This document shows, piece by piece, positions 1,517 through 11,232 of a stretch of DNA of 11,232 bases. The DNA comes from Candidatus Wukongarchaeum yapensis (GTDB lineage Archaea > Asgardarchaeota > Wukongarchaeia > Wukongarchaeales > Wukongarchaeaceae). Each line of letters opens with the position of its first letter. Position 1 is the first letter of the stretch. A model generated the notes under the pieces. That model worked only from the letters and a program-made list of their open reading frames with translations, was not told where the DNA came from and made no database searches. The DNA lies in NCBI GenBank assembly GCA_016840425.1, contig JAEOSI010000056.1:1-11232 (forward strand), in the 5' to 3' direction. A program made the translations under genes and the position numbers.

Positions 1517-1892
1517 TAATGAATCCCTCGTTTATCGCTTTTCTTTGCTTTTTTGGAGACTTGGAAATTTTTTGATTTTAAAAAAATTTGTTAAGGTTCA
1601 AGGTGAGTGTTATTTGGTTGATGCAGTTATGGTGTGTTTTCTTTTGGATTAGTTTTTATCAGATTATTTTGTTTTCTTACTTTAGTTTTTTATTTATTGT
1701 ATTGTAATGATAAATGATAAATTTTTCTTGTTTTTTTCTTCACTTTTTTTGGGTTTTTTATTTTTGGATAAGTGGCTGGATAGTGGGGAGAATATTTATT
1801 TGTATTTTTACTTTTTCTTTTAATTTGTATAGATTGTGTTTTTGTTGTTTTTATAGGTGTATGTTTTTGTTTTTTGTGGATGGTGTGTTTTT

Positions 1893-3089
1893 ATGGATGA
1901 GGAAAAGGTTATGGTTCTTGGGTCTAGGTTGGCTTCATTTAGAAGTTCTTTAGTGAGATCTTTGGAGGAAGCGGTTCCTAAAAATTTGCTTATAGGGGCC
2001 TTTAAGAGCGCTCAAGAGTTGGGTTTTTCGGAGGAAGCTGTTTTTATTAAGGAGATTTTTGATGATCTTAGCTGGGTTCCTGACCCAACTTTTGAGGAGA
2101 GAAAGGCGATTTCCTTAAAAATTGAGAGGTTTGTGGAAAGTTTTAGTGGGAAGTTGGAGGGTGTTATGAGAAGTGTTTTTGAGATCTCTTTTAAGAGTGC
2201 AGAGGCTTTAGAGATTGTGGAAAAACTGTTAGGGGGAGGAGGGGAAGGATTGAGGGTTTTACCGGAACTTTTGGGGAAAATAGGGTTTCACCTTAAAATT
2301 TTAGGTTTTCATGAAACGAGCGAGGAGGTCGCTGAACTGAAAGGGAGGATAGGTTATGGAGAAGAAGGGGATAAGCTGGCTTATTATTATCTTTTTGATT
2401 TTTTAAGACGGGTTCCTTTTGATATGTTGGGTCGGATTATCAGGAGGGCGGAGGATGGTGAGATAGAGTTTCCTCGAGGGATTGATTCTTGGCTTCTTTT
2501 AGGGCTTTTTCTTTCACGTTTAATGCATTTAAAGGGCGAGGAGGATTTCCCTTGGATCCTTTATAACGTATCGTTTACGGTTAAGTTGACGGAAAAAACA
2601 GGCTTTAGTGGGGAAGATTTTGGGAAAAACTTTGCCCGTTTAAGAGATATTCAGAAATCTTACAACACTTCAGGAAAAACCTTGCCTCGGGAAACTCCGT
2701 CTTCAGTAAGATCGGTTCTTCCTATGGTTACTAGGGATATTGAGAACTTTTACAAAAAACTTGAAAAAGATAAGCCGGATAAGAAGGCAGAAGCCTTAAT
2801 TTTAGGGGATAATTGCGGAAAAATGCTCGAAATTCTTAGAAGGCTCAAGGAAGGAAGAACTAGAGAAAACTTGGGAATGATACCCTTACTTTTAAAAGAT
2901 ACGATTAAGCTCATGGAATCCCTTAGGATCAGCCCAAGAATGATTGAGAAAATAGCGCTCTTAGAAAGATCGCTTGCCCCTCGCAAACCCCAGCTAGAGG
3001 CCTTTCTTACAAAGCATGAAGAGAGAGAAAGAATTTCTGAAGAAGTTTTTCAAATCTTTGCAAAAACTTTAGGCTTCCTTAAAATCTAA
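1893..3089 (+). CDS. Hypothetical soluble, probably all-alpha protein, about 398 aa
   Basis: Long E/K/L-rich ORF. Start moved from 1857 to ATG 1893 (GGTG 8 nt upstream; the extra N-terminal residues come from T-rich intergenic sequence). No motif recognised. Confidence 0.75.
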   Translation: MDEEKVMVLGSRLASFRSSLVRSLEEAVPKNLLIGAFKSAQELGFSEEAVFIKEIFDDLSWVPDPTFEERKAISLKIERFVESFSGKLEGVMRSVFEISFKSAEALEIVEKLLGGGGEGLRVLPELLGKIGFHLKILGFHETSEEVAELKGRIGYGEEGDKLAYYYLFDFLRRVPFDMLGRIIRRAEDGEIEFPRGIDSWLLLGLFLSRLMHLKGEEDFPWILYNVSFTVKLTEKTGFSGEDFGKNFARLRDIQKSYNTSGKTLPRETPSSVRSVLPMVTRDIENFYKKLEKDKPDKKAEALILGDNCGKMLEILRRLKEGRTRENLGMIPLLLKDTIKLMESLRISPRMIEKIALLERSLAPRKPQLEAFLTKHEERERISEEVFQIFAKTLGFLKI

Positions 3090-3289: not shown

Positions 3290-3435
3290 ATGAGAATTGA
3301 TACAAGTTTAAGTGAGGAAGAGGGTGAAAAGAGTATCCAGACAAGAGGGGTTTAAAGCTGAAAAGAGCTATTACAGAACTCATCAGAAAGGGGTTAGAGT
3401 GTGAGAAGAGTCACTACTCCACAAAACAAAAATAG
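3290..3435 (+). pseudogene. Frameshifted small ribbon-helix-helix (CopG-like) ORF inside the mini-element
   Basis: ATG 3290 gives MRIDTSLSEEEGE; the -1 frame from 3328 gives KEYPDKRGLKLKRAITELIRKGLECEK. Joined, this has a strand-helix-helix pattern. Palindrome ATAATAA-A-TTATTAT lies upstream (3263-3277). Confidence 0.45.
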
Positions 3436-3475
3436 GAGTAGGAACCCCACAACTTTAGTTGTGGGAGGATGTCAG
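3412..3475 (+). repeat. 64-bp right-end repeat, copy 2
   Basis: 63/64 identical to 807-870. Confidence 0.97.
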
Positions 3476-9649: not shown

Positions 9650-10729
9650 ATGGGCGAGATCAGAGTAGCTATCTCCGGTATAGGAGGATGCGGATCCGCC
9701 ATCGTACAAGGAATATACTATTACCAAAACGCGAAAGAAGATGAGTTCGTTCCAGGGCTCATGCACGTAAAGTTTGGAGATTATCATATAAGAGACGTAA
9801 AGTTTGTCGCTGCCTTTGATGTTAACAAGGAGAAAATAGGGAAGGACTTAAGCGAAGCGATTTTTGCAGAACCTTGCTACATGGCAAAGATCATAGAAGT
9901 ACCCCATTTAGGAGTTAAAGTATTACCCGCGCCCATTTTAGACGGGGTAGCCCCTCATATGGTGGAAGAGTTTCGGTGCTATAACCCTGAAGAAATGGAG
10001 CCTGTAAACGTAGCAGAAGAGTTGAAGAAAGCTAAAGCAGACATCTTAGTAAATCTTATCCCTGTAGGGAGCGCGGAAGCTACAAGGATATATGCCGAAG
10101 CCTGTCTTGAGGCAGGTTGTGCTTTCATAAACTGTATACCGGAGTTTATAGCAAGCGATGAAACTTGGGCGAAAAGGTTCGAAAAAGCAGGTTTACCTAT
10201 AGCAGGAGACGATATTAAAAGTCAGCTTGGGGCTACCATACTTCACAGGACTATTGCTGATTTGATGCGGGCAAGAGGTCTTATCATAGAGGAGACGTAT
10301 CAGTTAAACATTGGTGGGGATTCAGACTTTCTCAACATGACTGTGGAGGAGAGGTTGTCTTCTAAACGGATCTCAAAAACAGAGGCTGTAACCTCCCTAA
10401 TAGGCAAAGAAATACCCACAAGGATAGGCCCATCAGACTACGTTCCCTTCCTTGGAGACCAAAAAATCTGTTACATTTACGCAAGGGGAAGAAAATTTGG
10501 AGACAGACCCGTAAGAATAGATCTCAAATTGAGCGTTGAAGACTCGCCAAACAGCGCTGGGGTTCAAATAGACGCCATTCGGGCTACAAAGATAGCGCTG
10601 GATCGGGGTGTTTCAGGCGCTCTTACAAGTATAAGCGCTTACTCCTTCAAGCACCCTCCCATTCAAGTTCCAGACCACGTAGCAAGACAGTGGGTTGAAG
10701 AATTTATAGAAGGAAAAAGAGAACGGTGA
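9650..10729 (+). CDS. ino1: myo-inositol-1-phosphate synthase, 359 aa
   Basis: IRVAISGIGGCGSAIVQG Rossmann motif, VAAFDV, GDDIKSQLGAT, QLNIGGDSDFLNM, SKRISKT, DQKICY, VEDSPNSAG, FKHPP. Confidence 0.95.
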   Translation: MGEIRVAISGIGGCGSAIVQGIYYYQNAKEDEFVPGLMHVKFGDYHIRDVKFVAAFDVNKEKIGKDLSEAIFAEPCYMAKIIEVPHLGVKVLPAPILDGVAPHMVEEFRCYNPEEMEPVNVAEELKKAKADILVNLIPVGSAEATRIYAEACLEAGCAFINCIPEFIASDETWAKRFEKAGLPIAGDDIKSQLGATILHRTIADLMRARGLIIEETYQLNIGGDSDFLNMTVEERLSSKRISKTEAVTSLIGKEIPTRIGPSDYVPFLGDQKICYIYARGRKFGDRPVRIDLKLSVEDSPNSAGVQIDAIRATKIALDRGVSGALTSISAYSFKHPPIQVPDHVARQWVEEFIEGKRER

Positions 10730-10906
10730 ACTATCCCTCAATTTGGAAAGGGGCTTCCTCCCTCGCGCTCTGAAACGCTAACGGGTCTCCTTTCGGAGCG
10801 ACGTACTCTGGGGAGGTTTTTGGACTGGTTCACTTCCCTTTTTTGTTTGTGCCACAGACAAAGGACAGCCCTGCTCTTAAGCATAGAGCCTAAGAGCCTG
10901 TTCCTT
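10710..10906 (-). ncRNA. Predicted stand-alone omegaRNA (about 180-nt scaffold plus guide reading into ino1)
   Basis: 15-bp bulged 5' stem (10861-10906), GTGAAC (10827-10832) complementary to the terminal GTTCAC, CCTCCC/GGGAGG stem, CTCC-GAAA-GGAG tetraloop (10787-10798), TATA about 25 nt upstream. Confidence 0.6.
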
Positions 10907-10990
10907 CTGACATTTAATAGTTCAAAACTCTATTTAAGCTCCCCGCAATTTATCCCTCTCTTATGAAAGGAGTCTTCTTATGGCATAAAA
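10726..10990 (-). mobile_element. 265-bp protein-less IS200/IS605-family mini-element (second family)
   Basis: Minus strand: target TTAT (10991-10994), AAGA (10973-10976) plus bulged hairpin (10956-10972), and right end GAAG-CCCCTTTCCAAATTGAGGG-ATAGTTCAC. The two ends resemble each other (CCTTTC...GAGGGATA). Removing the element restores the ino1 end as CGA-TAA. Confidence 0.82.
10931..10937 (-). promoter_or_regulatory. TATA box inside the mini-element, pointing at the omegaRNA-like region
   Basis: TTAAATA on the minus strand, 24 nt upstream of the first paired base of the 5' stem. No good BRE seen. Confidence 0.45.
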
Positions 10991-11056
10991 ATAAATAAAA
11001 ACCGTCTAAACCCTTTCTTTCTTATTATTATGCAACTTTTCTTCCTTTTTACTTTT

Positions 11057-11232
11057 TTATAGGGTTTGAGTGTGGGCTTTTGCGATTAATTCAAACAAAG
11101 TTTTAGCTGCTAATACTGCTGTAATCCCGCTAGGATCAAAAGGAGGGCAAAGTTCTACTACATCAATTCCACATATTTGGGTTTCAAGTCCCCAGATTAT
11201 ATCAAAAACATTTGTAGGGGATAAGCCTTCAG
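11057..11232 (-). CDS. Ureohydrolase (agmatinase/arginase family), C-terminal 57 aa, partial; absent from the ORF track
   Basis: Translation EGLSPTNVFDIIWGLETQICGIDVVELCPPFDPSGITAVLAAKTLFELIAKAHTQTL*; GIDVVE-x-x-PPFD-x-SGITA is the typical agmatinase C-terminus. Confidence 0.85.
   Translation of the reverse strand, partial: EGLSPTNVFDIIWGLETQICGIDVVELCPPFDPSGITAVLAAKTLFELIAKAHTQTL

Follow-up and report, generated by a model that had tools for sequence, protein, structure and literature searches.

Background

Insertion sequence IS608 of Helicobacter pylori is excised and inserted as single-stranded DNA, its target being base-paired with a guide by the left hairpin, and its excision is seamless (PMC3201880). 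The element described here, at the 3' end of an archaeal ino1 gene, is like IS608 in having no inverted terminal repeats and subterminal hairpins at both ends (PMC3201880), in inserting on the 3' side of a short fixed target, which stays in place without duplication, and in having its right-end motif a few nucleotides past a hairpin. It differs in its target, TT(T/C)AT (TTTAA in a subfamily), in its right end, TTCAC, in its Asgard host, and in that its relatives carry tnpB only and the non-autonomous (MITE) copy itself no gene. On the other strand the TTAC/TCAA pair of IS608 reads G-TAA and T-TGA, and the literature search found no reports of stop-codon landings for IS608.

TnpB of the ISDra2 type works with a guide RNA from the right end (PMC8612924) and is a homing or retention nuclease (PMC8612924; bioRxiv 10.1101/2023.03.14.532601). 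The full-length relatives of the ino1 element also encode TnpB, and the likeness would extend to a scaffold overlapping the tnpB 3' end and the right end, a guide taken from the flank beyond, and a TAM that equals the target. The ISDra2 target TTGAT has the reverse complement ATCAA, which holds no stop, and therefore ISDra2 cannot rebuild a stop codon. PATEs or stand-alone omega-RNA elements and archaeal IS1341-type tnpB-only elements are similar in being internally deleted with their ends kept, in lacking an ORF and in being multi-copy; by contrast, the ino1 copy has eroded hairpins and is common to lineages about 10% diverged. Harmless sites at the ends of conserved genes are also used by Tn7, at attTn7 behind glmS, and by integrative elements that rebuild tRNA 3' ends. 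Those elements use dedicated target-recognition proteins or integrases, whereas the effect at ino1 follows from a 5-nt motif. The nearest published case is in Borrelia, where stem-loop remnants of IS605 have ends within or abutting the 3' end of a host lipoprotein ORF (Delihas 2009, PMC2775950); these overlap coding sequence, with no exact register-preserving stop replacement and no frequency given. The stop-codon rule set out below is simple and derives from known mechanics, and it is apparently unpublished: no statement of it was found in the literature searched, which left subscription papers mostly outside.

Results

The stop codon of ino1

The window, that is the whole stretch of 11,232 nt analysed here, is contig C7 of a 2.16-Mb Asgard-archaeon assembly of 277 contigs with 38% G+C. 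The ino1 gene (myo-inositol-1-phosphate synthase, 359 aa) occupies 9650-10729 on the plus strand (Pfam Inos-1-P_synth, E=1.9e-30); an exact-protein look-up in public assemblies returned no record. Its 3' end reads AGA GAA CGG TGA at 10718-10729, with AGA at 10718-10720, CGG at 10724-10726 and TGA at 10727-10729. The G at 10726 and the TGA at 10727-10729 are the reverse complement of the element-terminal TCAC; the stop codon of ino1 and the third base of its last codon are element-derived. The right end TTCAC gives the gene a G, which changes CGA silently to CGG, plus the new stop TGA. About 24 of 30 orthologues across the phylum have the C-terminus ...KRER* or a close variant, ending at the same residue, and several of them have CGx TAAAA, resembling the window's flank.

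Beyond the element lies the original spacer between ino1 and the convergent downstream gene (72 nt, 10985-11056). The 3' end of that neighbour, known from the ORF list, is at 11057-11232 on the minus strand; the gene runs off the window and continues in the metagenome contigs L060 and L061 described below. Inside the element and on the ino1 strand, a T6 tract at 10839-10844 (plus) lies about 110 nt past the new stop; it could be the present ino1 terminator, replacing T-rich tracts of the old spacer.

The inserted element

The insert, at 10726-10984 on the minus strand, is a 259-nt non-autonomous (MITE) derivative of a TnpB-only IS200/IS605-family element, with its left end at 10984 and its right end at 10726, and it matches the two ends of full-length copies. 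A genome search with 10726-10990 gave matches to its first ~94 nt and its last ~70 nt that lie about 1.2 kb from each other on contigs C172, C228, C216 and C265, where the full-length copies are 1.3 kb. The intervals between the end matches hold frames of 386 codons (C172) and 403 codons (C265), or frameshifted versions, and both frames carry the TnpB zinc-ribbon domain PF07282, among 31 such loci. Since its end matches flank tnpB frames, the insert is read as an internally deleted, gene-less derivative of a tnpB-only element. Its longest ORF has 63 codons, and at least seven sibling MITEs of 240-275 nt are present in the genome. Among solved structures the autonomous relatives come closest to TnpB/Cas12f, with weak matches (E-values from 1e-7 to 3e-4).

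Besides the 31 TnpB loci the genome has one intact Y1 transposase gene (PF01797, E=1.4e-40), on contig C70 and adjoining a tnpB; because this gene is outside the MITE, mobilisation would have been in trans. The transposase gene (C70:7637-8568) is directly followed by tnpB and preceded by a hairpin and a GATGAAT left end resembling the TTCAC family; contig C70 stops short of the right end of this transposase-bearing element.

The family has no terminal inverted repeats, and its fixed right-end motif follows shortly after a subterminal hairpin. Profiling the last 150 nt gave 39 right ends, and wider profiles gave 58; a strict hairpin filter missed 14 of the 39 ends already known and was replaced by the profile searches. 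All 58 right ends show the hairpin and TAGTTCAC, followed by unrelated flanks, which puts the last element base in the window at 10726. The cleavage motif TTCAC (GTGAA on the plus strand) at 10726-10730, minus strand, is the invariant terminus of the 58 copies. The right-end half, 10726-10868 (minus), matches positions 8-150 of the nhmmer right-end profile (E=1e-37) and is homologous to the last ~145 nt of the full-length copies, where the tnpB 3' end and presumably the omega-RNA scaffold lie. It holds an internal GTGAAC able to pair with the terminal GTTCAC. Of the 42 pairs in a consensus fold of this half, computed from eight family members, 5 are compensatory, which is weak support, and the Rfam scan of the window gave no family at gathering score.

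The left end, 10943-10984 (minus), consists of GCCATAAGAAGA, a subterminal hairpin region and GATAAATTGCGG (nhmmer left-end profile, E=3e-18), in a register common to the ino1 copy, C265, C172 and other MITE copies. Left ends of the family have a hairpin like that of the right end, then GATGAAT. Folded as DNA, the ends of the ino1 copy have z-scores of +1.0 and +0.7, no better than shuffles, and its hairpins are eroded, the terminal one included; this makes its present mobility doubtful. The element is an ordinary IS200/IS605 member and the MITE is old, and the ino1 copy is probably a fixed fossil and no longer an active cassette.

Occupied and empty alleles

We scanned JGI metagenomes with a degenerate 28-mer having R at two variable positions, which covered CGATAAA, CGATGAA, CGGTGAA and CGGTAAA. 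The matches were two contigs of one metagenome, one with GTGAA (L060) and one with ATGAA (L061). L060 is occupied, reading ...GAACG|GTGAA, 257 nt, |ATGAAAG..., and its element is about 90% identical to that of the window. L061 is empty, with the junction GAACG|ATGAA (...GAACG|ATGAAATAATG...) and the ino1 end CGA TGA, still R-E-R-stop; it is the only empty ino1 allele read, its lineage differs by about 15% in the spacer, and it could be the product of precise excision and not a never-occupied site. The window and L060 differ from L061 by exactly the element, with TT(C/T)AT kept on the left flank only and no duplication.

Flank homology among the three extends to ...TTTAT| in the window and ...TTCAT| in L060 and L061, beside GCCATAAG / ACCATAAG. 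With the left boundary drawn there, the distance to a common landmark is 22, 20 and 21 nt in the window, L060 and L061. This alignment and these distances place the boundary at 10984/10985 and make the element 259 nt, not 265. The retained target is TTTAT (ATAAA on the plus strand) at 10985-10989, minus strand, by the same alignment, and TTCAT (ATGAA) in L060 and L061; the TAA at 10986-10988 within it marks the position of the pre-insertion stop codon. Read from these flanks, the target is the 5-mer TT(T/C)AT, with TTTAA in a sister subfamily, and a 5-mer of this form allows both TAA and TGA as the replaced stop. Given the empty allele CGA TGA, the stop replaced at ino1 may have been TGA, not TAA.

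In Logan contigs of runs X1 and X2 (sediment or seawater), 10730 is joined to 11065 through 77 other letters and the element is absent; the identity of these 77 letters is not readable from the contigs, the tables of the two runs are near-identical and may be one data set, and parts left uncovered are not evidence. A marsh run (Logan) has the occupied allele with a diverged element.

The insertion at the ino1 stop is confirmed. The original prediction had read the occupied allele as AGA GAA CG|G TGA with G-TGA supplied by the terminal TCAC, and this was borne out in the sequence and at the 58 right ends; its statement that the protein ends in R-E-R-stop with and without the element agrees with L061. 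Its deletion of 10726-10990, giving CG|A TAA, was computed correctly from a boundary that the flanks move to 10984/10985, and the correct one, by the window/L060/L061 alignment, is the boundary it had offered as an alternative, at TTAT 10985-10988. The empty string that it predicted was absent from the JGI metagenomes, where the 28-mer covering CGATAAA returned only GTGAA and ATGAA alleles; the ATGAA allele, L061, gives the same protein end.

Recurrence at other genes

For each right end we measured how far an opposite-strand frame stays open coming in from the flank, both in the register of the element TGA and in the other two. At twelve of the 58 right ends a convergent ORF of at least 90 codons terminates in frame on the element TGA, against 2 and 4 in the other frames. 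A thirteenth (C216) runs off its contig, and the corresponding site in the sister species G001 is the stop of a 361-codon ino1 paralogue. The twelve genes are ino1, aIF5B, aIF2alpha, FEN1, V-ATPase subunit F, lipoate-protein ligase (LplA), two radical SAM enzymes, an HD hydrolase and three hypotheticals; the stop-sited host genes are real and often essential. The stop positions that were checked are native. At aIF5B the site is empty in G001 as ACT TAA AAA (target TTTAA) and occupied as ACG TGA, and at a hypothetical gene on C109 it is empty in G001 as TTG TGA A and occupied as CTG TGA. Both species carry an element at LplA and at the C110 radical SAM gene, whose more distant homologues end at the same residue, and the HD hydrolase orthologue of G002 has the same end position. 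Four stop-sited insertions are common to the genome and G001.

In G001 the 9-mer GTAGTTCAC occurs 31 times and its reversed control twice, and 12 of the 31 sites are in-frame stops of ORFs of at least 90 codons (the other two frames have 1 apiece). In two distant Asgard genomes, sampled at 30 sites each, 4 of 23 hairpin-bearing ends (G040) and about 2 of 11 (G024) were on stops, a stop-sited share of about 17% for the two samples. About one fifth of the family copies in the genome supply a host stop.

The gene set for the null expectation was our own codon-usage-scored ORF calls (2,124 genes, 82% coding, with TAA as 62% of the stops), a crude set from which the expected share of target sites on convergent stops among non-genic sites was 3-6% for 5-mers and at most 8% for T-rich 7-mers. 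Under the strictest null, T-rich 7-mers with sites up to 80 nt upstream of gene starts excluded, it was 12%. With the discovery case set aside, the P values for 12 of 57 are 7e-5, 0.004 and 0.036 at nulls of 5.7, 9 and 12%; at 12% the excess in the genome is only about 2-fold (P ~0.02-0.04), and the 12 of 31 in G001 give P = 1e-4. The genome-wide enrichment at stops that the original prediction had named as its check is thus present, at 12-13 of 58 here and 12 of 31 in G001 against 3-12% expected. Its reading of target and end as reverse complements of the form N-stop in the same register, neutral for the protein, agrees with the empty alleles at ino1, aIF5B and the hypothetical gene; the interpretation as a whole is supported, with corrections on the boundary, on the 5-mer target and on the replaced stop, which can be TGA or TAA.

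Several side observations concern the wider family. The 9-mer GTAGTTCAC was also counted in the relatives G019, G030, G040, G024 and G003 and is 4- to 12-fold above its reversed control in several Asgard families (132 vs 32 in G040); this over-representation marks the right-end type as widespread in the phylum. Among about 426 genes called with a TGA stop in the window's genome (G000), 13 (~3%) take the TGA from the TTCAC family. A paralogue 44% identical to the window's ino1 has a same-family element exactly on its stop in both species (G000 C216:3929; G001 C47:13435-13443, locus L124); the right-end flanks of the two paralogues are alike at 12 of 17 positions, and both proteins end in ...ER*. 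A sibling MITE (G000 C98:1345-1392, L057) landed in another frame, in the 3' end of a xylose-isomerase-like TIM-barrel gene. This ORF runs 16 codons into the MITE right end, which makes the protein tail transposon-encoded and the landing near-terminal but non-silent.

Discussion

Proposed mechanism

We favour, with good confidence, a silent stop-codon landing by an old gene-less MITE of a TnpB-only IS200/IS605 element, combined with persistence of the copies that landed in this way. The family inserts 3' of TT(T/C)AT without duplication and ends in TTCAC. On the opposite strand the target then reads A-T(A/G)A-A and the right end G-TGA-A. Since both reverse complements are N-stop in one register, the protein is unaffected when the element lands antisense on a stop. 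Where the target coincides with the third base A of the last codon, the stop and a following A of a convergent gene, insertion swaps A plus TAA or TGA for G plus TGA; the last codon remains synonymous, the protein does not change and the old stop moves to the left flank, and ino1 followed this course. Movement would have been as single-stranded DNA by the Y1 transposase in trans. The MITE presumably keeps a promoter-proximal left end and the omega-RNA scaffold. The flank 3' of the right end, 10706-10725 (minus), is 20/20 nt as in the empty allele L061 and would act as the omega-RNA guide, antisense to the last ino1 codons. Such a guide, antisense to the last 20 nt of ino1, could aim the TnpB of full-length copies at empty alleles, and the identity of these 20 nt in L061 means that a TnpB-guide complex from the ino1 copy could in principle cut the L061 allele.

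Under the favoured interpretation, stop-codon landings would take up some of the few positions in a compact genome where insertion does no harm. As soon as the right end serves as the working stop of a gene, right-end remnants would be kept while copies elsewhere turn over, and an excess would build up. Imprecise loss would extend the protein, and this would account for the right-end remnants that stand alone at aIF5B, LplA and a radical SAM gene. When the 58 copies are roughly sorted into young and decayed, with some 'intact' copies called from host ORFs, stop siting is seen in 10 of the 27 copies that are broken or reduced to a right end and in 3 of 31 MITE or long-ORF copies (Fisher P=0.025), and the ino1 element is common to lineages whose element copies differ by about 10%. 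As the stop-sited copies are mostly decayed remnants, harmless and persistent landings are favoured over active targeting, and the enrichment looks like differential persistence and not site choice.

Alternative explanations

The boundary first assigned to the element, 10726-10990 and 265 nt after TTTAT at 10991-10995, takes its first six bases, TTTTAT, as part of the left end, comparable to CTTCAT in sister copies. The two boundaries imply different empty alleles, GAACG|ATAAAAATAAAT for the inner and GAACG|ATAAATAAAAACC for the outer. Several sister copies do read TTTAT|CTTCATGCCGCAAG, and three copies, that of ino1 included, read TTTAT|TTTTATG; however, the MITE siblings read TTAT|CCAT, the junction has TTTCAT in both L060 and the empty L061, and the outer boundary turns the landmark distances into 16, 13 and 21 nt for window, L060 and L061, so that flank lengths and identity fit the inner boundary only. 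We regard the outer boundary as improbable. That the case is a single coincidence, an assembly chimera or 259 nt of native ino1 3' UTR is hardly credible. The window does hold a single case, in a fragmented metagenome assembly of 277 contigs, but contigs assembled independently from other samples run across both junctions, an empty allele exists, the sequence is repeated elsewhere in the genome, and the same junction is found at 12 further genes. With KRER* or a close variant at the end of about 24 of 30 orthologues and recurrence at 12-13 of 58 right ends, the coincidence exceeds chance.

A more substantial rival is adaptive targeting of safe harbours, in which a stop-like target and TAM evolved, convergent stops are preferred, the guide falls in conserved coding sequence and TnpB homes into diverged empty alleles. 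It would fit the excess above availability in several genomes, the conserved and essential nature of many host genes, the 20 nt beside the right end that are identical between the window and a diverged empty allele, and the related element on the stops of both ino1 paralogues with flanks alike at 12 of 17 positions. The potentially mobile copies, however, are only about 10% stop-sited, which is inside the 3-12% availability, the excess being in decayed remnants, and target choice by the transposase of this family requires just 4-5 nt (PMC3201880). We consider active targeting distinctly unlikely. The related proposal that this IS200/IS605 lineage is adapted to antisense stops of conserved genes as safe harbours, its TAM being a backward stop and its right end a replacement stop, is slightly less so, and still unlikely. 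On that view the guide RNA would always lie in constrained coding sequence, and TnpB homing would therefore work across diverged strains; if true, the lineage would parallel, among transposons, the homing elements found in conserved genes.

Implications

Silent landing explains how abundant RNA-guided-nuclease transposons can crowd a compact archaeal genome without gene breakage, as a 5-base motif turns the stops of convergent genes into silent landing pads. About 0.6% of genes (13 of ~2,100), translation factors and FEN1 included, end on a transposon-donated TGA, and in annotation, genes ending inside repeats are to be expected in this genome. Such landings also offer an internal control for separating insertion preference from survival. 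The rule predicts that IS200/IS605 families with a TTAN-like target and a TCAN-like end are capable of silent landing and that ISDra2, with its target TTGAT, is not. By sequence logic only, IS608 (TTAC/TCAA) and a second family in this genome, TTAC/TCAG, may have the same property. The genome yielded five TTAC/TCAG right ends, none of them on the stop of a long ORF, a number too small for a test.

Other features of the window

A TnpB gene truncated at its 5' end, with OrfB_IS605 and zinc-ribbon domains, lies at 38-870 of the window, and its right end (804-870) reads ...GGAGGATGTCAG. This TCAG right end recurs alone at 3409-3475, in a 67-nt copy of 97% identity. The copy was considered as the right end of an element carrying the ORF at 1857-3089 and rejected, being a bare 67-nt fragment. 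That ORF (plus strand, 410 aa) has a good coding score, matches no Pfam family and is unrelated to the upstream TnpB fragment. A Ras-family small GTPase, typical of Asgard archaea, is encoded at 917-1516 on the minus strand (Pfam Ras, E=3e-42).
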